Assembly: GCA_963933835.1 (NCBI GenBank)
Contig: CAWVVV010000001.1
Span: forward strand, 416,001-480,000
DNA: 64,000 nt
Reading direction: 5' to 3'
From: an uncultured Puniceicoccaceae bacterium
Lineage (GTDB): Bacteria; Verrucomicrobiota; Verrucomicrobiia; Opitutales; Oceanipulchritudinaceae
The notes beneath the pieces are model-generated. The model did not search any database and was not told where the DNA came from. It saw only the letters and a program-made list of their open reading frames with translations. Positions 20,005 to 52,193 of this stretch are shown piece after piece. The position numbers and the translations under genes were made by a program. How positions within the stretch are numbered: position 1 is the first letter of the stretch; every line of letters starts with the position of its first letter.

Positions 20005-22602
20005 CTAAAATTGATACTTAAAGCTCACGACAGCTTCTGTCTCGGGCGCTTTCGTGATCAGTGTATTCGCACCAAAGTCTGGATCAGCGCCGAGATAGTA
20101 GTCCTCATTAAAGAGGTTCTCTATGCTCAAGTTGATCTCCACTCGCTCAGATCGCCAGCCGAGACGCGCATTGAAGACAAGCGATGAATCGATTTTTAAG
20201 GTGCGGTCATAGTTATGCCAAAAACTACTCCGATAAATGCCGCCACCGGCGATCTGAAATCCCTTCGGAAGATCATACACCGCGTAGAGCTTGAAAGAGC
20301 TTTCAGGTGCCCCCGGCACAATGAGGTCTGGATTATTCGCAAGCAACTGCGCGTCTCCCGAAACAACATCGGAATTATACAAAGCACCGCCTTCCAGTGC
20401 GACGCCGATCTCTTCGTTGTTTGCTCCCGTTGGATCCGCTAATCCCCACGGCATGGCCCGAAAGAATGGAGCTACAAGGCGCTTTGTTTCACGGTCAGAA
20501 TAGGACGCAAGCACTGTCAGTGACTCGCTCACGGCCCAGCTTAGCTCTACTTCAATACCCTCCGAGGTGTAAGGATCTTCTACCCCGCTTTGATTTGAGA
20601 AGGCAGTCTGCTCCCAGCGGTAGGCTGAAAGCGTCGCAAAGCCCCGACCATCGAGGAAGCTATACTTGAACCCTACTTCGCGCAGGCTCCCATCACCAAA
20701 GTTCGCTGCGTTTAAGACCACACCACCATCGCCGGGAACAAAAGTTGTCGTCTCCTGAATCGCTCCATAGAGTGAAAGCTCGGGAGTGAGTTTGATGACC
20801 GGATTCACGCTCCAGTTGGTGTAATCGACTTCATCGGATGCCGTTTCAAAAGGAATATCGGTTGGTCCGCCCGGCGTCTTCACTTCGAAATCCGCTCGCT
20901 CGTGACGCGTCGAAAAGATGATCGAGAACAGATCCTTGTAATCAACCTTCACTACGCCAAAGGCTGCAATCTGAAGTAAATCGGATTCTGCCGCATTTGT
21001 GCCGAGCCCTGCTCCCCCGAAGCCGCCACCCCAATAGTTGTTCTCGAAAAATGAAGGGTCGGCCTGAGCGCCGGTGAGGATAATTGAATTGGGTGAAATC
21101 CCGCTCCGGGTGATGTCACGACGGGCAAAGGGTTCGGTCCAATAGTCTTCCAACTGGATCACATGTGAGAAGCGCGTCTGCACACCGCCGATGATTTCGT
21201 AAGCGATCGCGCCGTCCGTTTCAGACGACAGGACAAAGGAAAGACGATTATCATACACTTCCTGCTCACTCCGAAAGCTGTAGCCGTAAGAAGAACGCTT
21301 ATCTGTGTTTAAGGCCTCAGCAAAAAACTTGTTCTCAATCGTCAGTGTATCTGAAACATCATACGTCAGATCGAAGAAGAAGATCGCATCTTCAGAATCC
21401 GCAAAATCGCTCGGATCGGCCAGCGCAGTGCTGCCATCTATGGGCGCAGTAAAGACGACCCCACCTAGATTGAAGTATTCTGGGGTGTAGAGATAGCCGG
21501 AAGACGTCTGAACAATATTCGGTCCTAGCCCCGCATAGGTGGCCGTCCTCACCTGAGGGTTGCTCATATCCTTCATCGCCGCCACTTGTGCGGCTGAGAG
21601 AGCTCCGGTCGTGATGGCTTCGTTGATGACCGCATCGGGCACGACCAAAGCGCGGAAGTCGGCGTTGTTTTGATTTGTGAGCCAGGAGAAATCATAAACG
21701 ACGCTATCGATCACTCCCCGATCGGCGACCCCGCCGTTGAGCGGGTTGACCAGACTTAAGGGTTCGCCGATAACATAGTCGCCCTTGTCGATGAGGTTCT
21801 GAGTGGGCCGATTCCAACCGGCATTCTCATTCGACTTAAAATCGTAATACTCCCCCCCAGCGAAGAGTCGCAAGCGGTTCGACAGTTTCACCTTCACCGC
21901 CGCATATACTGAGTAGTAATCATTGGATACGTCGTCATAAAAGCTATCCCCATCCTGCGCCGTGACAGAAACACGGAAGGCCGCGGGAACATCCCCAAGA
22001 AGTAAGGGACCGCCCACATCTACTTGGCCCTGATAAGAACCAAAAGAGCCTAGTTCGACTTCGATCGAACCACGGGACTGATCATAGTAGGGCGACTTTG
22101 GAATCATATTGGCAAAGCCTGCGACATGGGTCGCAACATACTGAGCAGGGGCCGGCCCTTTGATGATGTCCATGGCCTCGAGTGAGCCAAAGGAGGTGGG
22201 CATCGCATTCCACTGGTAGGCCCGCAGCATACCGTTGAAGTAGACCCCACCCTGCCAACCACGGATCGTCGGTGCTCCTGCAATACCGAAGAAGTTATAG
22301 CGCTCTGTGCTCGCCCCAATTTTATCGAGATCACTGAAGTCATCTATTCTGAGTTGCTTCAAGAGTGCTGGATTCAAACTTAGAACTGACCTTGGCGTGT
22401 CGAGAACGGCCATATCTTTAAAGAAGGCACCATCAACAGTACGATCCGTGGGAATCAGCGAGTCAGCGTCTTCCGCTGCAATCTCCTCGGAAATAAACGC
22501 TTCTAGTTCCGTTGGCTCCTGAGATTGAGCAGTTAAAAGTGCAGGCAGAAACCAGTACAGGGGGGCGCATTTGAGTTTTAGACTCCTAAGAGGTTTTCTC
22601 AT
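20005..22602 (-). CDS. TonB-dependent receptor
   Basis: Signal peptide, plug (DTPRSV..IRG..IIKGP), beta-barrel, NLFNEDYY, terminal YQF. Confidence 0.92.
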   Translation of the reverse strand: MRKPLRSLKLKCAPLYWFLPALLTAQSQEPTELEAFISEEIAAEDADSLIPTDRTVDGAFFKDMAVLDTPRSVLSLNPALLKQLRIDDFSDLDKIGASTERYNFFGIAGAPTIRGWQGGVYFNGMLRAYQWNAMPTSFGSLEAMDIIKGPAPAQYVATHVAGFANMIPKSPYYDQSRGSIEVELGSFGSYQGQVDVGGPLLLGDVPAAFRVSVTAQDGDSFYDDVSNDYYSVYAAVKVKLSNRLRLFAGGEYYDFKSNENAGWNRPTQNLIDKGDYVIGEPLSLVNPLNGGVADRGVIDSVVYDFSWLTNQNNADFRALVVPDAVINEAITTGALSAAQVAAMKDMSNPQVRTATYAGLGPNIVQTSSGYLYTPEYFNLGGVVFTAPIDGSTALADPSDFADSEDAIFFFDLTYDVSDTLTIENKFFAEALNTDKRSSYGYSFRSEQEVYDNRLSFVLSSETDGAIAYEIIGGVQTRFSHVIQLEDYWTEPFARRDITRSGISPNSIILTGAQADPSFFENNYWGGGFGGAGLGTNAAESDLLQIAAFGVVKVDYKDLFSIIFSTRHERADFEVKTPGGPTDIPFETASDEVDYTNWSVNPVIKLTPELSLYGAIQETTTFVPGDGGVVLNAANFGDGSLREVGFKYSFLDGRGFATLSAYRWEQTAFSNQSGVEDPYTSEGIEVELSWAVSESLTVLASYSDRETKRLVAPFFRAMPWGLADPTGANNEEIGVALEGGALYNSDVVSGDAQLLANNPDLIVPGAPESSFKLYAVYDLPKGFQIAGGGIYRSSFWHNYDRTLKIDSSLVFNARLGWRSERVEINLSIENLFNEDYYLGADPDFGANTLITKAPETEAVVSFKYQF

Positions 22603-22633
22603 AATCACCGCAATACGTAGCGAACGAAGCGGG

Positions 22634-22649
22634 TGCAATGAAAATGCCT
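22634..22649 (-). promoter_or_regulatory. Putative sigma-54 promoter of the TonB-dependent receptor
   Basis: Minus strand AGGCATTTTCATTGCA fits GG-N10-GC. Confidence 0.55.
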
Positions 22650-22696
22650 TTCCTAGCAATTCATCCGTTCGCCAGAAAAGCTAATAACTTAGCGCT

Positions 22697-32708: not shown

Positions 32709-33587
32709 ATGACCAACGATCCTGCCAAAAACCCGATCAAATCCGATTTTGCGACGGGCTTACTGATCTACTCGATCACCGCCTTTATCTTTTTTCCGCT
32801 CACGCGGTTTCTTTTTGATCAGACGGTCAATCAAGACCAGCTACTCCACTCCTTCCTCGTCTTGTCGATGGCTGGCGCGCTCCTAGTTTATGAGAAGCGC
32901 GTGAGGCTGAATCCGGTCTGGGAGCTCGGGCTCTGGAGTCGACGCCTGCTCATCATCTCCTACGTCATCCTCATTACCGTGGTCATGACGGGCTGGACGC
33001 TGTTGATGATTCCAAGCTTTTCCTGCGCAGTCGCATCGGCTGCTATCTTTGTTTTTGGTGACCAAGTAAAGCGGTTCGTCGCTGCACTCGTCGGCGCCTT
33101 CACTCTTTTCCAAGGCTTCGTCCTTGCTCTACCATTTCTCGACTGGCCGCTTCGAGGAGTCGCTGCGCAGATGTCGGGGAGCGTCCTGAAGTTTCTTGGT
33201 CGAGAGATCGAAATACGTCTCTATCAACTTGATGAACCTGCCCTCCTGCTCCTTAGCAATGGGAAGGAGTTCCTCGTCGCACCTGAGTGCAATGGCTTTG
33301 GCGTCACCGTCTCTTCTCTACTCCTCGCGCTCCTCCTCGTCGTCTTCCGCCGGATTAAACTTTCAGGAAAGATCGGGTCTTTCTTCCTCGCTGGAATCAT
33401 CGGTCTGATCGGAAATACGATTCGGATTACGATCATCGTTCTCCTCGCGCCCATCGTTGGCGAAGACGGCTACCATCTAATGCATGAGATCGTCGGCACT
33501 ATCGTCTACTACGGAACCTTAACCTTTATCTGGTGGATGATTCTCCGCCTCCCGACGATCAAAGAAGTCCCCCCTCCCTCTTCCTAA
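32709..33587 (+). CDS. Exosortase/archaeosortase family protein
   Basis: Multi-TM; VAPECNG (Cys), GNTIRI (Arg) and HEIVG (His) triad. Confidence 0.85.
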   Translation: MTNDPAKNPIKSDFATGLLIYSITAFIFFPLTRFLFDQTVNQDQLLHSFLVLSMAGALLVYEKRVRLNPVWELGLWSRRLLIISYVILITVVMTGWTLLMIPSFSCAVASAAIFVFGDQVKRFVAALVGAFTLFQGFVLALPFLDWPLRGVAAQMSGSVLKFLGREIEIRLYQLDEPALLLLSNGKEFLVAPECNGFGVTVSSLLLALLLVVFRRIKLSGKIGSFFLAGIIGLIGNTIRITIIVLLAPIVGEDGYHLMHEIVGTIVYYGTLTFIWWMILRLPTIKEVPPPSS

Positions 33588-33674
33588 TCCTAATCCCAAT
33601 CTTAATCTTAATCTCCATCCGAATCCGTCGAGATTTGGATTAGGATTATGAGTTTAGATTTGGATTTGGAGTTA
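33585..33674. repeat. Inverted array of hexamer repeats (NAATCY x7, short loop, RGATTN x~7)
   Basis: taatcc taatcc caatct taatct taatct ccatcc gaatcc-gtcg-agattt ggatta ggatta ... agattt ggattt ggagtt. Confidence 0.85.
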
Positions 33675-34046
33675 ATCCCAGAGTGCGATTCTCAAGAGCC
33701 ATAACCACCCGGCGAGAAATGCGAGGCCTCCGATCGGGGTGATCGCGCCCAGCCACCCGATGCCAGTGAGGGAGAGGATATAGAGGGAACCTGAGAATAT
33801 CACTATCCCCACGATCCACGCATGACGCGTGAAGCGCACTAGGCTAGCTCGGACACCCAAGCCACCCAGTGCAAGCAGTCCCACGGAATGAATCAGGTGG
33901 TAGAGCACCGCGGTCTCCCACGTATCAACGCGGTCCATTGCGATCAGGCGATCTTCGAATAGATGGGCTCCAAATGCACCGATTGCGACCCCTAGAAAGC
34001 CAAGGATCGCAGCCGCTCGAATCGATTCATTAACGTCATTTCGCAT
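33672..34046 (-). CDS. DUF423 (YgdD/TMEM256) membrane protein
   Basis: GAFGAH, WETAVLYHLIH, FSGSLY, GAITPIGG. Confidence 0.9.
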   Translation of the reverse strand: MRNDVNESIRAAAILGFLGVAIGAFGAHLFEDRLIAMDRVDTWETAVLYHLIHSVGLLALGGLGVRASLVRFTRHAWIVGIVIFSGSLYILSLTGIGWLGAITPIGGLAFLAGWLWLLRIALWD

Positions 34047-37000
34047 CCTTAACCTCCAATCTCCATTCATCAGTATTTCCAAATACGTGATTGAGATACA
34101 TCGGTTCGACGATGGCTGGTTGTGCCTGAAAACGACCAGGGGATTCTGCCCTGAGTCTGTAGCGAATTTCCCATACACCCTCCGGCAGTCGGTCAAAAAG
34201 AAGGCCGACATGCTTATCTCTGAGCTCCAAGTATCCAGAGATTTGTTCGAGGTTCGGCGCTGGATTAACCGTATCAGCAACACGACGGGCAATCGCACTT
34301 GGCCCGCTCAATACCTGAACGGCCTCAAATCCAGCCGGCTTAGGATCCTCGATCAAAACGTAGCTCATGTCCCGCGGACATTCGATGCGCAGGACCACTT
34401 CGATCCGATCACCAGAATTCACGAATGCTTTATCATCGAGCGGCGTCATAATCTCACTGACACCTTGTAGAAGAGTTGGGACGGGCTTGAGATGAACATA
34501 GGAACGCGAGATAGAAATATCACTTGAGCCAGCATTCAAACGCTCTGATTGGTCATAAAACTCCGCGTAGAGCTCAAAATTAAACCCAAGTCTAGAATCC
34601 GAACGTTTGATCGAAATCACATCTTCAGGGTTGATTGACGCTGTATCCAAATCTGCCACCGCGGGCACCCAATCCTTCGAAGTCAGCTCGATCGTGGTGT
34701 CACCGGACGTCGCCGAATAGACAACCGCCTTCTGATCATCCTCCGCTTGGCGTAAGTAGTTGGAAATAGCGATCACAGCCAATCCCGTAGAGCGCGTATT
34801 TTGCCAATGCGTACCTGTCCTGTTACGCGCTAACCAAGTAACGGCAGGCTCAATCAAGCGGCTGCGTTGATCAATTTCGAGTAAGGCCGAAAGCACCCAT
34901 GCGGTTGATTCCACCGCTCCTTCGCTCCAATGATAGTAGCCCACTTGTCGGCCCCAGAAGGCCGTCGGCAAGGTCAACGGATGACCCTGTGCGTCTTTGC
35001 TGCCGCTTAAATTACCTGAGCTTTCTTGCACCGTATTCTCCAGATTACGGATGATCAATTCAGCGTCTTCATCGAAACCAAAGTAGTGCGCGCTCAAGGC
35101 AAGCATCGCGAGATTCATTGGCTTAAGCGTACCACGCCTAGACATCAGGTTGAGAAAGCTCCGAGCCTCCATCCGGGAAGGGCGCCCCACTCCGTGGCCA
35201 CGGTAGCGGCTCGACAATGCGAGCAGGACCCAGGATTCACGCGAGGGTGATAACTCGGATTCGATGAGCTGGCGTTCCAGCCAGTCGCGCGCTGCACCCA
35301 TATCAATCGATTCCAAATCGACGTCCATTTCCTCTGCTAGGGTGAGTGACCAGACCGCGTAGGCTGTCATGAAAAGATCACTACGCCCGCCCGGCATCCA
35401 TGGCCAACTGCCGTCTGCCAGCTGAAGTTCTTCCATTCGAGTAATACCATCAGCAATAACTTCTTCGAGAAGATCACGAAAATCTTCTCGCCCACCAACG
35501 GCTTCATTGGAAAGCTCTCCGAAGATAAAACTATCGATCTCTTCTAGATCAAGCGCGAGCTGTTCTGCAGCTCCCATCACCGCCACAGAAGGCAGGAAGC
35601 GACTGAGCGTCTGCTCGGTGCAGCCATAAGGAAATTCGATCAAATACGGCAACGCGCCAAGCATCTGAGTCGCATATGTCGTCGAGAGTTTAAGCGTCAC
35701 TTGTGTATCTTTGCGCTCCTCCGAGGCGGGCAGATCTAGCTTCAGCTCTACGTTGTCTTCACTCGTGCGACCAACAAGACCCACCGTCCGATTCATCCCA
35801 CTCGGGATGATTTCGATCATGCGCTCTACGCCGTCTGAGTGATTGTGTGAGATGGCTCCAAGGCTGAGTTCAGCCTGACCCACTGTTTTTGCCTCTACTT
35901 CCCACTCAGCTCGAAAAAGCCCTCCAGCGGGCACCCGCTTGCGAAGGATCTCAGCACCCTCTAATTCAAGAATCTCGTCCACTTCAAAAGCCGCCGTGAC
36001 GTCGATCGGGCTCTCGGTGTTGTTCTGAATGATGCCACTGAGCTTCGCGACATCCCCTTCAACAAGGAAGCGCGGGGTCTGCATCCGAGCAACGAGCGGC
36101 AGGCGCGTTGTCGTGCGCAAACTAGTTTCACCGACACGGGTATCTCCTGTGATCGCGAGTGCTTGAAGCCTCCACGCAGTGAGGTTGTCTGGAAATTCGA
36201 GCTCAACGGTCGCTTTACCCTCCGCATCGGTCTGCACACGAGGAAGCCAAGCTAGGGTCGAGCGGAAGTCGCTGCGAAGGGACATTTTTGATATGTCCAA
36301 TTCCAGTAGAAACTCATTGTCAATTGCAGCGGCCGATAATGGCAAATCCCTCAAGGACGTGTTCAAACTAGTTCCTGAAATAGAATTAATAGAGCGATAC
36401 CCGACATCGTCGGATAAATCTACAGTGAATGGTGACAACTCGATTATTTCATCCTGCGATTCGAACGGAGAAGACTCCGCAGACTGTTCCAGCGGCTGAA
36501 AGAATGGCTGGTTCCTTAAAGAACTGCGCGAACCAAAGTCATGCGTGTTCTTATCCCCGTAGAAAGCTTCGAGAACTGAAAGCCTCGAGGTGTCGACGAG
36601 CGAATAGAGCGCTTCGTCAGATGCGAAAAAAGTCAGCTCGGTTTCAACTGGGGTTCCATCCGCATCGAGCACGAGCAAATCTACCGATGCCATGTCTCCT
36701 GGCTCATAGCCATCCTGATCAGGTGAGATTAAGACATCGAGATATTGCTCACTCGGCGGGACTTCTAATTCGATTGAATCAGTCAGGTGAGCTTCATTTG
36801 AGATGAGCGAAACATCGACGAAGGCATTTGGGAAAAATTCGGGCGATGGCAGGATTGTAATCAACTTACTACTACCATCGAGACGAATAACTCGGTGCTC
36901 GATAAGTGCGTCTGCGCTGATCGTTAACAAGGCCCAGCGATTCTGAGCCGGAGCGGCGATCATGAGCGGGATCGGAGTCCCAACTTCAAATGGCCCATTA

Positions 37001-39765
37001 TTTGCGACAAGCTGAACCCCACCGGGACGGTAGCCCAGCTCTGTAACCGCTTTGTCGCTGACCCAGAGTGGCACCTCCGCCGTAACTGGCCGCCCACGCT
37101 CTCCTCGGCTGATCCACTCGAAAACGTAGTAGCCCGTCTCGGGAGGACTAAAGACGTAGTGGGCGAAGCCCTCGGCATTCGTCACGAGTGCCTCACGCAC
37201 AATTTCTTCGGTTACAAAGCCAGACTCCAGAAGGCGGTAATCACTCTGAGCGGCATTTATGATAGAGCGGTCAGGCAAGGTGCGGTAGGTCTCCCCACTG
37301 ATTTCTGAGCCCCTTTTGCGATGCACGTAGACTTCACGCCATTGCTCCCGAGTCACCCGCAAGGTGCCGTCATCGACGACGGGCTGTTCATTCGCATCTT
37401 GTAGTGAAATTTTAACGCGCCCGCTATCGCCGGGGGCAAGTAATCTACGATCTAAGGTCAGCTCAGAAAAATACGCCTGCTGCGTTACATGGACACTCGC
37501 CGCCGTTACCGTTTCACGCCGTGACAAGTCACGCACTCGCGCTTCAAAGGCGTAGGTGTAATCCTGATCAGCGTCTCTAAGCGTGCGATAGGAGAAGGTT
37601 GCATGGCCACGTGCGTCTGTCGTGAGGTTGATGCGCTCAAGCTCTTCGGACTCGTATGACGGGTAGAAGTCCCTTCTCCTCAGGTCCAGATCTGCATAAC
37701 CATCGTAGGGCACAATACTCCAAGACTGATACGGCGTCCGCGTGACAATGATTTCAACGGTCGCATCTTCAACCGCTCCTCCCGCGTAGTAGTTCACGTT
37801 CAGAGTCCCCTCGAGTTCATCTCCTGGATAAATCGGAGCGCTCGAACCAAAGCTTATCTTCGCTTCGATGTCTGGCGTGCGATACTCTTCAACATAGAGG
37901 GCAAAGTTGTCGCTGTCCCAATACTCCAATGCATCTCTTTCGACGCTAAACCCGTATTCTCCGAGCGGAGCATCCGAGGGAAGCTCAAAATCGAGGACAA
38001 AACTCCCACTCGAATTCATCTCAAGGGAACCCTCTGTTATATAGTCACCGCCCCAAGATCCAAATTCGTATTTAAAATCTTCCGACAGGTCCGGAAGCGA
38101 CCACTGATTGTCCGTCTTCTCTCTCAACCAGCCAACGAGGCGAACAGTATCTCCCGGCCGATAAATCGAACGGCCAGTGACTAGATAGACCATCCTTTCG
38201 CTAGTGTCGCGAGTGCCTGACCACGAATTATTGACGAGCGCTGTAGCGCCTTCGCCAAAACTACTCGAAGCCAACAAGACCCGCTGCACACTCCCACGCA
38301 AATGGTCGGGGACAGTGTAGCTCCAGAGACCCTCGTCATCCGTCGTGCCCGAAAGCTGAACTTTGACAGGATCCTTTCCGCGCCCATCGGGCCACGCCTT
38401 GAGCTCAAGGGAAAGATCTACATTGGGGCGCGGTTCGCCATCATCGGCGTCGGCGAGATAGAAGAGAATCTCATCGCCTACTTCGTGACTCAAAATGACA
38501 AGGTCGGTCACATAGAGCGGAGCGAAAGCGACTGTCTCGCCACTCGTGGCCACAACAACATATGCCCCGGGTTCAAGCGATTGCTCGAGACGCACGCGAT
38601 CCAGAACAGGATAATGCGGAAAAGCTGGGAGTGCCTGCAAATTACTCAGGCTACTCGACGGCACGAGTAGATCCAGCGGCGGAGGCACCTCACCTGCTTT
38701 CCCACTATGGAGCACATGGCTGAGGGGGTCGACGCGGTAGACTTCGACCGATGGGGCCTCGATGTTTCTCCAGCGCACTGCGAATTGAACCTCGGCCTCA
38801 AGCCGGAAGGCATGGCTGACAAGGACCTTCAAATCGGGCGTCTCAAGACGTTCGATCGCCCGCTTAGCACGATCACGGAAATGGCTCCATTCCTCCCTCT
38901 TGGTCTCAAGGAGCTTTTCATAAGCCAGCTTAGCGTCGATGTAGTCAGGCTTAAAGATGAGTTGGCCGACGTCGTTATACTCCGACATGCCGTAGCGCTC
39001 TGACCACTGCCCATGTTCCCAGAGAGCCAGAGCATAGGTCGACGTCTTCGACCCAGCCGCGACCGCCCGAGCAAGGGCATCGCCTTGGCGGATACGTATC
39101 TCAGGGGCGTTCTCCATCGATTGCCGTGCGTAGGCGTGAGCTAACTCGAGATTGAAATAGGCACTGTCTTCGTCGCTCTGTGCGATGTGCACCGCTTGAC
39201 GCAAGACGCCGAGCGCGTGATCTGTGTTGCTGTAAGTTCGACCCAGTTTGCGAACGAGACGCAGGTATTCCGGCCTCGCACGCACCAGATCGGTCGACGA
39301 TGCCCAGTATTCGAGCAACTCGTCGAAGAGCGTCTGCCCGTCGTCCGTTCGAGAAAGGTAGGTCGCGGCATTCTCGTAGAGGCTCTGCCAAAAAGCGTCC
39401 TTCGGTCTATCTTGACGAATTTCCCGCGCTGCCGAGAAGACGGCCTCACTTAACTCAGAGAGAATGCCCTCTTCAGCCTCGTCCCAGGTGCGATTCTGAA
39501 GCCGCAGTTGGTAAGTGGTCAGGCGGTCGTAAGCCTGCGCTTGCAAGCGATCGAGCGGAGTCGCCCGCGCATCGACAGCAAGCTCAACAAAGATCGGCTG
39601 AGCGATGGCAAACGAACCTTCCTCAAACGCAGCCATGGCCTCTTCGAAACGGGTCGGGGTCGACCCCCGTTCGGCGGCTTCTTGGGCGCTGAGCGGTGCA
39701 AGAAGCACGCTAAGCAGGCAAAAGACGGTGTAGACTAGGCGGGGAGGGAGTGGGAGCGCACGCAT
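34036..39765 (-). CDS. Bacterial alpha-2-macroglobulin family protein
   Basis: Signal peptide, IYRPGD MG2 motif, PDNLTAWR, thioester PYGCTEQ, WQNTRST, IEDPKPAGFE, YRLRAESPG..PMY. Confidence 0.95.
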   Translation of the reverse strand: MRALPLPPRLVYTVFCLLSVLLAPLSAQEAAERGSTPTRFEEAMAAFEEGSFAIAQPIFVELAVDARATPLDRLQAQAYDRLTTYQLRLQNRTWDEAEEGILSELSEAVFSAAREIRQDRPKDAFWQSLYENAATYLSRTDDGQTLFDELLEYWASSTDLVRARPEYLRLVRKLGRTYSNTDHALGVLRQAVHIAQSDEDSAYFNLELAHAYARQSMENAPEIRIRQGDALARAVAAGSKTSTYALALWEHGQWSERYGMSEYNDVGQLIFKPDYIDAKLAYEKLLETKREEWSHFRDRAKRAIERLETPDLKVLVSHAFRLEAEVQFAVRWRNIEAPSVEVYRVDPLSHVLHSGKAGEVPPPLDLLVPSSSLSNLQALPAFPHYPVLDRVRLEQSLEPGAYVVVATSGETVAFAPLYVTDLVILSHEVGDEILFYLADADDGEPRPNVDLSLELKAWPDGRGKDPVKVQLSGTTDDEGLWSYTVPDHLRGSVQRVLLASSSFGEGATALVNNSWSGTRDTSERMVYLVTGRSIYRPGDTVRLVGWLREKTDNQWSLPDLSEDFKYEFGSWGGDYITEGSLEMNSSGSFVLDFELPSDAPLGEYGFSVERDALEYWDSDNFALYVEEYRTPDIEAKISFGSSAPIYPGDELEGTLNVNYYAGGAVEDATVEIIVTRTPYQSWSIVPYDGYADLDLRRRDFYPSYESEELERINLTTDARGHATFSYRTLRDADQDYTYAFEARVRDLSRRETVTAASVHVTQQAYFSELTLDRRLLAPGDSGRVKISLQDANEQPVVDDGTLRVTREQWREVYVHRKRGSEISGETYRTLPDRSIINAAQSDYRLLESGFVTEEIVREALVTNAEGFAHYVFSPPETGYYVFEWISRGERGRPVTAEVPLWVSDKAVTELGYRPGGVQLVANNGPFEVGTPIPLMIAAPAQNRWALLTISADALIEHRVIRLDGSSKLITILPSPEFFPNAFVDVSLISNEAHLTDSIELEVPPSEQYLDVLISPDQDGYEPGDMASVDLLVLDADGTPVETELTFFASDEALYSLVDTSRLSVLEAFYGDKNTHDFGSRSSLRNQPFFQPLEQSAESSPFESQDEIIELSPFTVDLSDDVGYRSINSISGTSLNTSLRDLPLSAAAIDNEFLLELDISKMSLRSDFRSTLAWLPRVQTDAEGKATVELEFPDNLTAWRLQALAITGDTRVGETSLRTTTRLPLVARMQTPRFLVEGDVAKLSGIIQNNTESPIDVTAAFEVDEILELEGAEILRKRVPAGGLFRAEWEVEAKTVGQAELSLGAISHNHSDGVERMIEIIPSGMNRTVGLVGRTSEDNVELKLDLPASEERKDTQVTLKLSTTYATQMLGALPYLIEFPYGCTEQTLSRFLPSVAVMGAAEQLALDLEEIDSFIFGELSNEAVGGREDFRDLLEEVIADGITRMEELQLADGSWPWMPGGRSDLFMTAYAVWSLTLAEEMDVDLESIDMGAARDWLERQLIESELSPSRESWVLLALSSRYRGHGVGRPSRMEARSFLNLMSRRGTLKPMNLAMLALSAHYFGFDEDAELIIRNLENTVQESSGNLSGSKDAQGHPLTLPTAFWGRQVGYYHWSEGAVESTAWVLSALLEIDQRSRLIEPAVTWLARNRTGTHWQNTRSTGLAVIAISNYLRQAEDDQKAVVYSATSGDTTIELTSKDWVPAVADLDTASINPEDVISIKRSDSRLGFNFELYAEFYDQSERLNAGSSDISISRSYVHLKPVPTLLQGVSEIMTPLDDKAFVNSGDRIEVVLRIECPRDMSYVLIEDPKPAGFEAVQVLSGPSAIARRVADTVNPAPNLEQISGYLELRDKHVGLLFDRLPEGVWEIRYRLRAESPGRFQAQPAIVEPMYLNHVFGNTDEWRLEVKDAK

Positions 39766-50092: not shown

Positions 50093-50440
50093 CGCCAAAG
50101 CCTTCCTCTGCTAAGCGTGCAACTGCATCCACGAAGACCTCTAGGGCTGCTCGGATGTCTTCGGGTTTCACGTATTCATCGGGGTGGTGGCTGAGCCCTT
50201 GGCGGCAGCGAACGAAGAGCATTCCCACGGGGCAAATCTCCGACATCGCGACGGCATCGTGTCCAGCCCCACTGATAATCTGGGGAGCCTTACCCTGCAC
50301 CGCCTCAGCGCTGCGCGTAAGCAGATCTACTAGGTGCGGATCCATCGGCACCACTTCTGATTGCTGCAGGTAATCGAAACGCAGACGAAGCTTTCTCACC
50401 CGAGTGACTTCAAGGCACTTGGCATGGATCATTTCCGCCC
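50079..50440 (-). pseudogene. C-terminal remnant of allantoate amidohydrolase (M20 family)
   Basis: SGAGHDA, MLFVRC, GLSHHPDE; the N-terminal part of the enzyme is absent. Confidence 0.8.
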
Positions 50441-50444
50441 GAAG

Positions 50445-50528
50445 GTGCCATATATGGCGTATATATCGAGATTGACTTATCGTGCCTTATATGACGTCTT
50501 ACTGCCTTTCATACGATTTATACGTCAC
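50445..50528. promoter_or_regulatory. Three related 16-bp operator-like sites upstream of the HipB-like gene
   Basis: GTGCCATATATGGCGT (50445), GTGCCTTATATGACGT (50482), inverted ACGATTTATACGTCAC (50513). Confidence 0.55.
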
Positions 50529-50540
50529 AAAGGACGCTTA

Positions 50541-50888
50541 ATGATAATCGAGCCAAATACGCCCGTTGAAAATATTCTCATCGAATGGGGGCATCGTCTC
50601 GCTGCAAGGCGACTCGCTAAGAACCTAACCCAAAAGATCCTAGCTCGTGAGGCTGGCATCGGTTTGCGCACCTTGCAGCGTCTCGAGAGCGGGGCCGTCG
50701 CATCGCAGCTATCGAGCCTTGTGGCCGTTTGCAAAGCGCTCGGTCTCGACGGCGAGCTGGCGGCATTCATCCCAGAACGAGCGATTAACCCGATGGATCA
50801 GCTCCGCCTAGCAGGCAAAGAGCGCCAGCGGGCTTCCAACGTCGCCCAAGATTCTGCTCCTGACGAACCTTGGGCGTGGGGCGAGTAG
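50541..50888 (+). CDS. XRE-family HTH protein (HipB-like antitoxin)
   Basis: RLAKNLTQKILAREAGIGLRTLQRLESG; directly upstream of hipA. Confidence 0.85.
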   Translation: MIIEPNTPVENILIEWGHRLAARRLAKNLTQKILAREAGIGLRTLQRLESGAVASQLSSLVAVCKALGLDGELAAFIPERAINPMDQLRLAGKERQRASNVAQDSAPDEPWAWGE

Positions 50889-50891
50889 ACC

Positions 50892-52193
50892 ATGATTGCC
50901 GAAATTCGCCTCTGGAACCGCACGATCGGAGCCGCCTCGAGTATACCCGGCGATCCGATCACTAGCTTTCAATACGACCCCGACTTCATCAAAAGCGGAA
51001 TCGAAGTCTCACCGCTACACCTTCCACTCAGGGATGAGCCTTATCGTTTCCCGCAGCTCGCGCGTGAGACTTTTCATGGGCTTCCAGGGCTGCTCGCCGA
51101 CGCCCTGCCCGATCGCTTCGGAAATGCTGTCATCGATGCATGGCTAGCGAGCGAAGGTCACCCAACTGACAACTTCAATGCACTTGAGCGACTCTGCTAT
51201 ACGGGCAATCGCGGGATGGGTGCCCTTGAATTTCGGCCAATGCAAGGCCCCCAAGCTCGCCGCTCTAGCACGCTCGATATCGATACCCTCGTAAACCTCG
51301 CCACCGAGGTCCTCACAAACCGCAGTGAGCTCGCAGGTAATCTTGCAGAAACCGCCCGAACCAAAGCGCTCAACGACATTCTCCAAGTGGGGACCTCGGC
51401 GGGTGGAGCCCGTGCCAAAGCGGTCATCGCTTGGAATCTATCCACAAACGAAATGCGCTCAGGCCAGATTGAAAGAGGAAGTGGCTTCGAGTATTGGCTT
51501 CTCAAGTTCGACGGCATCGCCGCCACGGTCGAGCGCGGCCTCACCGATCTCCAAGGCTACGGAGCGATCGAATACGCCTACAACCTCATGGCCATAGCGG
51601 CAGGCATCACAATGAGTCCGTGCCGTCTCTTTGAAGAACGTGGCCGACGTCACTTCATGACACGTCGCTTTGACCGCACCGCCAGCGGCGAAAAACTCCA
51701 CATGCAAACCCTCGGAGGCCTCGCCCACTTCGACTACAATCAGGCTAATGCGCACAGCTACGAGCAGGTCTTCGCCGTGATGGAGCAGCTCGGCCTCACG
51801 GCCGCTGAAATCGAAGAACAATTCCGACGGATGCTCTTCAACATCGTCGCGCGCAATCAGGATGATCACGTCAAAAACATCGCCTTCCTCATGGATAAAG
51901 CGGGGCGCTGGGCGCTCTCCCCCGCCTACGACATCACCTACGCCTACAAACCCGGCAACCCATGGCTGAACAGCCACCAACTCAGTCTCAACGGCCAACG
52001 CAAGACCTTTACCCGTGCTGATATCCGCGCTATCGCCAAACGGACCCGCCTCCCACGAGGCCGCGCTGATACCCTCCTCGAAGAAGTCACGAGCGCCGTC
52101 CAACGGTGGCCCGAATTCGCATCCGAGGCCATTGTTCACAAACACCAGATCAGCGCCATCGGGCAAACTCACCGGCTCGAATTCGTTTCATAG
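50892..52193 (+). CDS. hipA: HipA-family serine/threonine kinase toxin
   Basis: LADALPDRFGN, GTSAGGARAK, WLLKFD, RRFDR, NQDDHVKN, LSPAYD. Confidence 0.92.
   Translation: MIAEIRLWNRTIGAASSIPGDPITSFQYDPDFIKSGIEVSPLHLPLRDEPYRFPQLARETFHGLPGLLADALPDRFGNAVIDAWLASEGHPTDNFNALERLCYTGNRGMGALEFRPMQGPQARRSSTLDIDTLVNLATEVLTNRSELAGNLAETARTKALNDILQVGTSAGGARAKAVIAWNLSTNEMRSGQIERGSGFEYWLLKFDGIAATVERGLTDLQGYGAIEYAYNLMAIAAGITMSPCRLFEERGRRHFMTRRFDRTASGEKLHMQTLGGLAHFDYNQANAHSYEQVFAVMEQLGLTAAEIEEQFRRMLFNIVARNQDDHVKNIAFLMDKAGRWALSPAYDITYAYKPGNPWLNSHQLSLNGQRKTFTRADIRAIAKRTRLPRGRADTLLEEVTSAVQRWPEFASEAIVHKHQISAIGQTHRLEFVS

Follow-up and report, generated by a model that had tools for sequence, protein, structure and literature searches.

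Question of function raised by a TonB-dependent receptor N-terminus copied into the bait of an alpha-2-macroglobulin from an uncultured Puniceicoccaceae bacterium

Bacterial alpha-2-macroglobulins (A2Ms) are held to be generic traps with variable, anonymous baits, and a bait that reads like an identifiable part of another protein therefore raises the question of what has been copied and what the copy might be for. Such a bait is encoded in a 64,000-nucleotide stretch of DNA from an uncultured Puniceicoccaceae bacterium (contig CAWVVV010000001.1 of assembly GCA_963933835.1, positions 416,001 to 480,000; the whole stretch is hereafter called the window). A first-pass annotation, made from the DNA alone, had proposed that the bait of the 1909-amino-acid (aa) A2M in this window resembles the N-terminus of a TonB-dependent receptor (TBDR), comprising the TonB box and the start of the plug domain. 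Judged by sequence comparison, the bait is a genuine copy of the N-terminus of a TBDR, with TonB box and plug start, and the likeness is far beyond chance. Among the explanations considered for its presence, we tentatively favour one in which the copy serves as a TonB-engaging handle on a bait that can still be cleaved.

The 55-aa peptide singled out by the annotation is encoded on the minus strand of the window at 36298-36462 and corresponds to A2M residues 1102-1156. It is flanked by the Pfam domains A2M_BRD and A2M (Table 1) and ends 11 residues before RSDFRSTLAW, so that translation and Pfam flanks agree in placing it at the bait position, as had been claimed. Because the peptide lies between the bait-region domain (BRD) and the next conserved domain, it stands where Escherichia coli ECAM has its disordered bait, as described in PMC4498604. 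An AlphaFold2 (AF2) model of aa 899-1293, computed from a 21-row alignment, contains two confident beta-sandwich regions with predicted local distance difference test (pLDDT) values of 80-94 on either side of a loop (fragment residues 185-270); since this stretch between the folded domains falls below a pLDDT of 50, the TBDR-like segment is placed in a loop that is predicted to be disordered.

A phmmer search with the 55-aa piece against 1.84e9 representative proteins returned 647 matches at E<=1e-3, three of them at E<=1e-10 and the best at E 2.3e-12, with identities of 61-63% over ~51 residues. Nearly all of the best 150 of the 647 matches align within the first ~100 residues of the matched protein. 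When 25 of these 150, chosen as the longer ones together with oddities, were scanned with Pfam, 22 contained a Plug domain beginning ~30-35 residues after the start of the bait match, and the remaining three were two short fragments and one repeat open reading frame (ORF). A word-indexed search of 5.8e9 proteins found five matches besides the A2M itself, of which four carry Pfam Plug and the fifth is a 126-aa fragment. One 846-aa ORF (P0011) is a 14-fold tandem repeat whose unit includes 'SISPFTV' and which yields 14 weak matches to the bait; the ORF probably results from spurious or antisense translation of a repeat.

A hidden Markov model (HMM) of the TBDR N-terminus was built from 154 TBDR matches, which were themselves selected by their likeness to the bait, and its positions 1-50 match aa 1104-1153 with 78.9 bits (E 1.4e-24), compared to 62-101 bits for the TBDRs. 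The match is collinear throughout, running from an acidic lead-in through the TonB box and a linker into the first plug strand, and the opitutal TBDR consensus that the annotation had given agrees with the consensus of the 154 real TBDR matches. The bait matches no more of the plug than about its first 15 residues, and the alternating hydrophobic residues that the HMM consensus has in the plug strand are alanines in the window's bait. No Pfam Plug match was found in the A2M or in the 55-aa piece, even at E<=1, the piece by itself matches no Pfam family, and the A2M has no TonB_dep_Rec or OMP barrel Pfam match, as A2M domains follow the segment. Since both plug and barrel are lacking, the A2M, on its domain content, is not itself a TBDR. 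Compared to TBDR N-termini, which consist of a TonB box and the beginning of the Pfam Plug domain (PF07715) and with which it shares the order of its elements and the identity given above, the bait segment is internal to what would be a soluble protein, with the box at aa 1107 rather than after a signal peptide, and is followed by neither a Plug fold nor a barrel.

A fusion of this kind could also arise from an assembly chimera or from a mis-called frame joining an A2M gene to a TBDR gene. The identical A2M protein is found on 8 contigs from several sources, the longest of 1.05 Mb, alongside members with 0-1 mismatches, and a metagenome scan for orthologues recovered one identical locus only, the cluster members being identical in the bait. 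Because the same protein is recovered from 8 contigs and from one metagenome scaffold, an assembly chimera is not the explanation; together with the single 1909-codon frame and the collinearity of the flanking A2M domains with homologues, these observations rule out an artefact, the probability of which we consider negligible. At the DNA level, no similarity of the bait to any TBDR gene was detected in 26 related genomes, and the protein identity of 61-63% therefore does not reflect a very recent transfer from a sampled relative.

In order to follow the TonB box through the family, baits were taken as the ~100 residues before the RxDF motif in the A2M loci of related genomes, in 119 database homologues and in 80 named genome loci; the named A2M relatives of the window genome belong to the Puniceicoccaceae/Opitutales. 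A matrix derived from TBDR TonB boxes only (106 distinct 9-mers) was run over the full length of 211 distinct A2Ms, with a threshold of 3.94 bits that corresponds to the 99.99% quantile of 375,914 non-bait positions. Eleven of the 211 A2Ms (about nine if the two pairs of near-duplicates are each counted once) have a bait site above this threshold (10.5-30.6 bits), which in each case is the best site of the entire protein, and the 30.6 bits of the window's box are unmatched by any non-bait position. All of the box-bearing A2Ms belong to the Opitutales/Puniceicoccaceae (the window's A2M, those of genomes G002, G005, G022 and G016, a second copy in G012, P0158, P0160 and one from an Opitutales metagenome-assembled genome), and in five of them the bait, and no other part, is also matched by the full TBDR profile (E 1e-12 to 1e-6). 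In P0158, which is ~74% identical to the window's A2M overall, IIVLSPFEV is kept and the rest of the bait has diverged. The distance between box and RxDF ranges from 32 to 84 residues, as expected for a linear motif in a disordered linker. The ELSPF.V pattern, for which the annotation had proposed a check among related A2Ms, is thus kept in the baits of Opitutales/Puniceicoccaceae relatives, and the claimed likeness to TBDRs holds. The TonB box is absent from four A2Ms from other families of the order, the genomes of which also lack a match to the bait-type TBDR N-terminus, and the G001 contig stops just short of the bait. The second G012 copy (L034, G012:C20:3213-6245) lacks GCxEQ and has one in-frame TGA inside the match; its bait has a long TBDR-like stretch, extending from the TonB box through profile position 50 (profile E 1e-12).

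Motifs of TBDR type are also present in the baits of more distant A2Ms. Three acidobacterial genomes supplied 30 TBDR N-termini, and motif discovery in the 29 usable ones recovered a classical TonB box 13-15 residues before Plug. This motif was scanned over 68 full-length named A2Ms. It has its top whole-protein site in the bait in five of seven full-length Thermoanaerobaculia A2Ms and in one of the 61 others, the sole exception being a structural strand before RxDF. A regular expression for the Thermoanaerobaculia TonB box likewise matches nine of nine Thermoanaerobaculia baits and one of 70 others, with nine matches in 14,237 residues outside the bait; in these baits only the box is conserved, inside low-complexity linkers. 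The element found in Blastocatellia/Pyrinomonadaceae is the plug start, as LP[IVL]NGR occurs in 7 of 29 baits and not once in the 50,141 residues that these proteins have outside the bait. At the DNA level, a degenerate pattern for the LP.NGR motif found 29 sites in three Blastocatellia genomes, compared to 7 for a reversed control. Twenty of the sites lie in long ORFs, namely 15 TBDRs of the CarboxypepD_reg plus barrel (Oar) type with the motif at the plug start, one VWA-TBDR fusion, one VWA fragment and three A2M baits. A weak profile of seven Blastocatellia TBDR N-termini matched nine A2Ms at E<1, three of them at <=1.3e-3, and all of these matches lie 4-59 residues before RxDF. A database-wide search with one Pyrinomonadaceae bait (L198, 54 aa) gave 70 candidates, none of which matched apart from the A2M itself, and single-bait phmmer searches against the 30 acidobacterial TBDRs gave a match at E<=0.01 for one of 79 baits; as these stricter searches were nearly blank, the plug-start likeness of the Blastocatellia baits rests on motif-level tests. 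Taken together, TBDR-type bait motifs recur in three separate lineages, and each matches the TBDRs of its own lineage.

Two further observations concern these proteins and receptors. Other clade-specific motifs are found in A2M baits, partly from Planctomycetota, with 'RRYG[LM][IV]P' in a first group and 'L.ALGY.GG' in a second (the A2Ms concerned are P0195, P0210, P0227, P0229, P0246, P0249 and P0268; P0181, P0187, P0189, P0200 and P0225; and L156 and L171), suggesting that other A2M baits may also copy specific sequences. In addition, some TBDRs carry a VIT plus VWA module, or a VWA module, before the TonB box, plug start and barrel (P0017, and L245:3-3017 and L234:1068-3017 in the Blastocatellia genome G044, of which L234 ends at the locus end). 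These VWA-fronted TBDRs, with an extension like that of inter-alpha-trypsin inhibitor, look like a TBDR subclass.

This pattern bears on the possibility that the bait is an evolutionary relic, in which the 5' end of a TBDR gene recombined into a fast-evolving bait loop, persists there because any flexible and cleavable stretch would serve, and left motifs that are now decaying without a role of their own. Very different bait sequences are tolerated across the family, the module is degenerate or absent in several relatives, and the replacement of the plug-strand hydrophobics by alanines in the window's bait is also what decay would produce. However, the TonB box is kept as the sequence around it diverges, the score of the bait is that of a genuine TBDR N-terminus, and the 26 related genomes hold no DNA-level trace of a donor. 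Above all, the TBDR-type motifs recur in three lineages, and because this recurrence is lineage-matched a neutral relic is disfavoured; we regard it as improbable.

The reading that we tentatively prefer, the TonB-engaging handle, takes the protein to be an exported thioester A2M trap, the disordered bait loop of which contains a captured TBDR N-terminus without plug fold or barrel. The TonB box would act as a short linear motif that is offered in the periplasm to TonB, or to a paralogue with a TonB_C domain encoded by the same genome, and would thereby dock an A2M that has no anchor of its own on the inner-membrane TonB/ExbBD machinery. TonB could also pull on the loop, the release of which triggers the trap. 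As the loop would still be cleavable, a protease cut may both spring the trap and sever the tether. The periplasmic location, the binding to TonB and the functional consequences are all features that we infer from sequence. The bait is read as a motif offered to TonB because the TonB box is the captured part that appears to have been kept by selection in this clade. In addition, the type of box follows the TBDRs of each lineage, which is what a common reader, TonB, would lead one to expect. To our knowledge, pairing with the TonB C-terminal domain is the only established role of a TonB box. Such pairing is described in PMC6434023. In ECAM, activation requires that the bait becomes untethered (PMC4498604), and the cleaved bait of human A2M is reported to retract from a channel during activation (PMC9352918). 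It is therefore conceivable, as speculation, that a partner pulling on the loop could actuate the trap.

The window genome itself provides information on this point. Its assembly of 1.94 Mb (97% complete) has six Plug matches and eight TonB_C matches, including an ExbB-ExbD-TonB operon. No TBDR with a bait-type N-terminus was found in it, the bait being the only tblastn match; with the HMM run over all six-frame ORFs of the genome, the bait is again the only significant match (E 1.3e-22, next best 0.55). The TonB boxes of the genome's own six TBDRs are of the same general type and score -6.9 to 13.2 bits, compared to 30.6 for the bait, and up to 20 TBDRs of the bait type occur per genome among relatives in the family. 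That the box is kept in a genome without such a TBDR fits a reader such as TonB better than the protection of that TBDR class. The annotation had also drawn a parallel with the TBDR encoded in the window (20005-22659, minus strand), which is weak, as ELEAF-type motifs are present but the protein goes undetected by both the HMM and the TonB-box matrix. It is an atypical TBDR, with a weak Plug match of 26.8 bits and no Pfam family at E<=1e-5. The TonB_C matches of the genome (G000) are located at C2:194490-196609, at C6:74505-75155 and on C4, C3, C1 and C8; among them is a tandem pair of TonB_C proteins (~447-449 aa) on C2, and the genome has two ExbB-(ExbD)-TonB-TPR operons and more TonB-like readers than receptors. 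A complex prediction pairing residues 112-217 of a TonB C-terminal domain with bait residues 1095-1162 scored 0.02 and returned no answer, which counts neither for nor against the handle.

Several observations weigh against a handle. No TonB_C-, ExbB- or ExbD-like ORF adjoins the window's A2M gene, and such ORFs lie in the flanks of six of 127 A2M loci, as seen with detectors built from the window genome's own proteins, which may miss distant ones. Within the same family, the box is missing or degenerate in the baits of G018, G017, G007, G003, G008 and G014 and of the main G012 copy, and that of G006 is weak (2.1 bits, below threshold). In G017, which has 0 TBDRs of the bait class and no TonB box in its bait, the joint absence fits a decoy as well as a handle. 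The window's bait also preserves ~35 residues past the TonB box, and in Blastocatellia the conserved bait element is the plug-start LP.NGR, with a TonB box that is degenerate at best; a pure TonB handle needs no plug start. Finally, since being cut is what defines a bait, a decoy needs no new partner.

This last point introduces the alternative that ranks close behind the TonB handle, that of a substrate decoy. Here the bait would imitate an exposed or unfolding-prone TBDR N-terminus and so trap foreign proteases that enter the periplasm, or the cell's own envelope proteases, and contact with TonB would not be needed. The mimic sits in the very element whose known job, according to PMC4498604, is to be cleaved, and the thioester is intact. 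Different lineages keep different parts of the TBDR, with the box in Opitutales and Thermoanaerobaculia and the plug start in 7 of the 29 Blastocatellia baits, and the long ORFs bearing LP.NGR in the three Blastocatellia genomes are mostly Oar-type TBDRs (15 of 20) plus the three A2M baits. The window's bait has preserved more than the box, as the linker and first plug strand are there too. There is also a precedent, since direct contact between the periplasmic protease PopC and the TBDR Oar is described in PMC6434023. A decoy is nevertheless harder to reconcile with other results. Baits are usually variable and permissive and do not hold a conserved 9-mer. The window genome has lost, or never had, the imitated class of TBDR, yet keeps the best-preserved mimic, and the Thermoanaerobaculia conserve the box only, in low-complexity linkers. 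Furthermore, we know of no protease with specificity for the TBDR N-terminus or the TonB box, and our analysis found none. On balance, a decoy is a genuine possibility, albeit a somewhat less probable one than the handle.

The first-pass annotation had offered the trapping of TonB-hijacking toxins as a further function. Colicin-type toxins offer a TonB box of their own to TonB rather than binding one, and for this reason the trapping of such toxins is the least likely of the functional options in that annotation. The TonB-dependent colicins and pyocins do resemble the A2M in that a TonB box on a disordered stretch of a non-receptor protein engages TonB, or in the case of the A2M may do so. They differ in that they are imported toxins with an N-terminal box, whereas the A2M is an exported protein of the cell itself with the box in an internal loop.

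The remainder of the gene is that of a macroglobulin. The 1909-aa protein consists of a signal peptide, ~390 N-terminal residues without a Pfam match, macroglobulin (MG) domains, the bait-region domain, a thioester domain (TED) and a C-terminal bMG10 domain, and the Pfam matches above cut-offs are MG2 (55 bits), A2M_BRD (41.7), A2M (56.5), TED_complement (35.5) and bMG10 (74.7). The coordinates of its features are collected in Table 1.

Table 1. Features of the A2M gene and its bait, with positions in the window
Feature	Residues (aa)	Window position	Strand	Basis or remark
A2M gene		34036-39765	minus	Single open 1909-codon frame; ORF list and translation
Predicted signal peptide	1-27	39685..39765	minus	Ends LSA/QE; by eye from translation
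Bait-region domain, Pfam A2M_BRD	918-1056	36598..37014	minus	AF2 beta-sandwich, pLDDT 80-93
Predicted disordered bait loop	1083-1168	36262..36519	minus	AF2, pLDDT<50, no secondary structure
TBDR-N-terminus-like segment (TonB box, linker, first plug strand)	1104-1153	36307..36456	minus	Database matches and HMM
TonB-box core IIELSPFTV	1107-1115	36421..36447	minus	30.6 bits, TBDR 9-mer matrix
Conserved Pfam A2M domain, just past bait	1170-1257	35995..36258	minus	RSDFRST block at aa 1164
Thioester motif GCTEQ	1381-1385	35611..35625	minus	

The thioester motif, which the annotation had described as intact, is present, and across 16 homologues E1384 and Q1385 do not vary at all and C1382 scarcely varies. 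No canonical lipobox was seen by eye in the signal peptide, and a Pfam scan of 41 ORFs of the window found no penicillin-binding or transglycosylase protein, which bears out the earlier statement that the gene has neither a lipobox nor an adjoining pbpC. On these features, the protein belongs to the superfamily of bacterial thioester A2Ms and not to the lipoprotein/pbpC type I. Its own family comprises 573 homologues (E<=1e-10) that share its Pfam set and for the most part have GCTEQ, and corresponds to the large thioester A2Ms with TPR/YfaS annotations (1800-2100 aa) of Acidobacteriota, Planctomycetota, Verrucomicrobiota and Nitrospinota. The baits of this family differ by clade, as the ELSPF box occurs only in Opitutales/Puniceicoccaceae, ITVTA in Thermoanaerobaculia and LP.NGR in some Blastocatellia, and the others carry unrelated motifs.

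The closest solved structures are those of E. coli YfhM (5a42, 4ziq and 4rtd; E ~5e-8). ECAM (YfhM) and the Salmonella SaA2M are type I proteins (PDB 5a42, 4ziq, 4rtd), and PMC4498604 describes the MG ring, the BRD with a disordered bait, the CxEQ motif, the TED and the C-terminal MG domain that they share with the window's A2M; the snap-trap mechanism is presumed, by analogy, to be common to them as well. The differences are considerable, as the similarity at E ~5e-8 extends only over aa 1179-1407, and the window's A2M is ~300 aa longer, has an unannotated N-terminal region, lacks both a lipobox and a pbpC neighbour, and carries a TBDR N-terminus in its bait.

The neighbours of the A2M gene are DsbD, DUF423, exosortase and DnaE genes. 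An exosortase (EpsH) gene (32709-33587, plus strand) and a DUF423 gene (33672-34298, minus strand) lie directly downstream, and DsbD diverges upstream. Sorting of the A2M by the adjoining EpsH was considered and rejected, as no PEP-CTERM-like C-terminus was seen by eye. Elsewhere in the window (50361-52193, plus strand), a helix-turn-helix (HipB-like) gene is followed by a HipA_C/Couple_hipA kinase gene, forming a toxin-antitoxin pair of the HipBA type.

The clients of TonB recognised so far are outer-membrane receptors and imported toxins. Our search of the literature found no publication that joins a macroglobulin with a TonB box, or with TonB and a bait, among the sources it covered, which did not include subscription-only papers. 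A wider view of the handle, which we consider doubtful, is that there is a class of periplasmic traps, spread over three or more phyla, wired to TonB by TBDR front-end sequences in their trigger loops, such that TonB has an endogenous soluble client. In such a class, TonB would tether the trap or spring it mechanically, drawing the bait from its seat with proton-motive force, instead of or besides proteolysis.

The bait described here copies a specific envelope element in recognisable and conserved form, and it follows the TBDR type of each lineage. A soluble endogenous client of TonB would mean that a protease trap is linked to the energy-transducing machinery of the cell; if the decoy is true, proteases would target the TonB-box/plug end of nutrient receptors, and bacteria would defend these receptors with decoys. 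Either reading would be new biology. It also offers a rule for reading A2M baits, which is to compare them with the exposed envelope sequences of their own genome, and this comparison may reveal the targets of other bacterial A2Ms.

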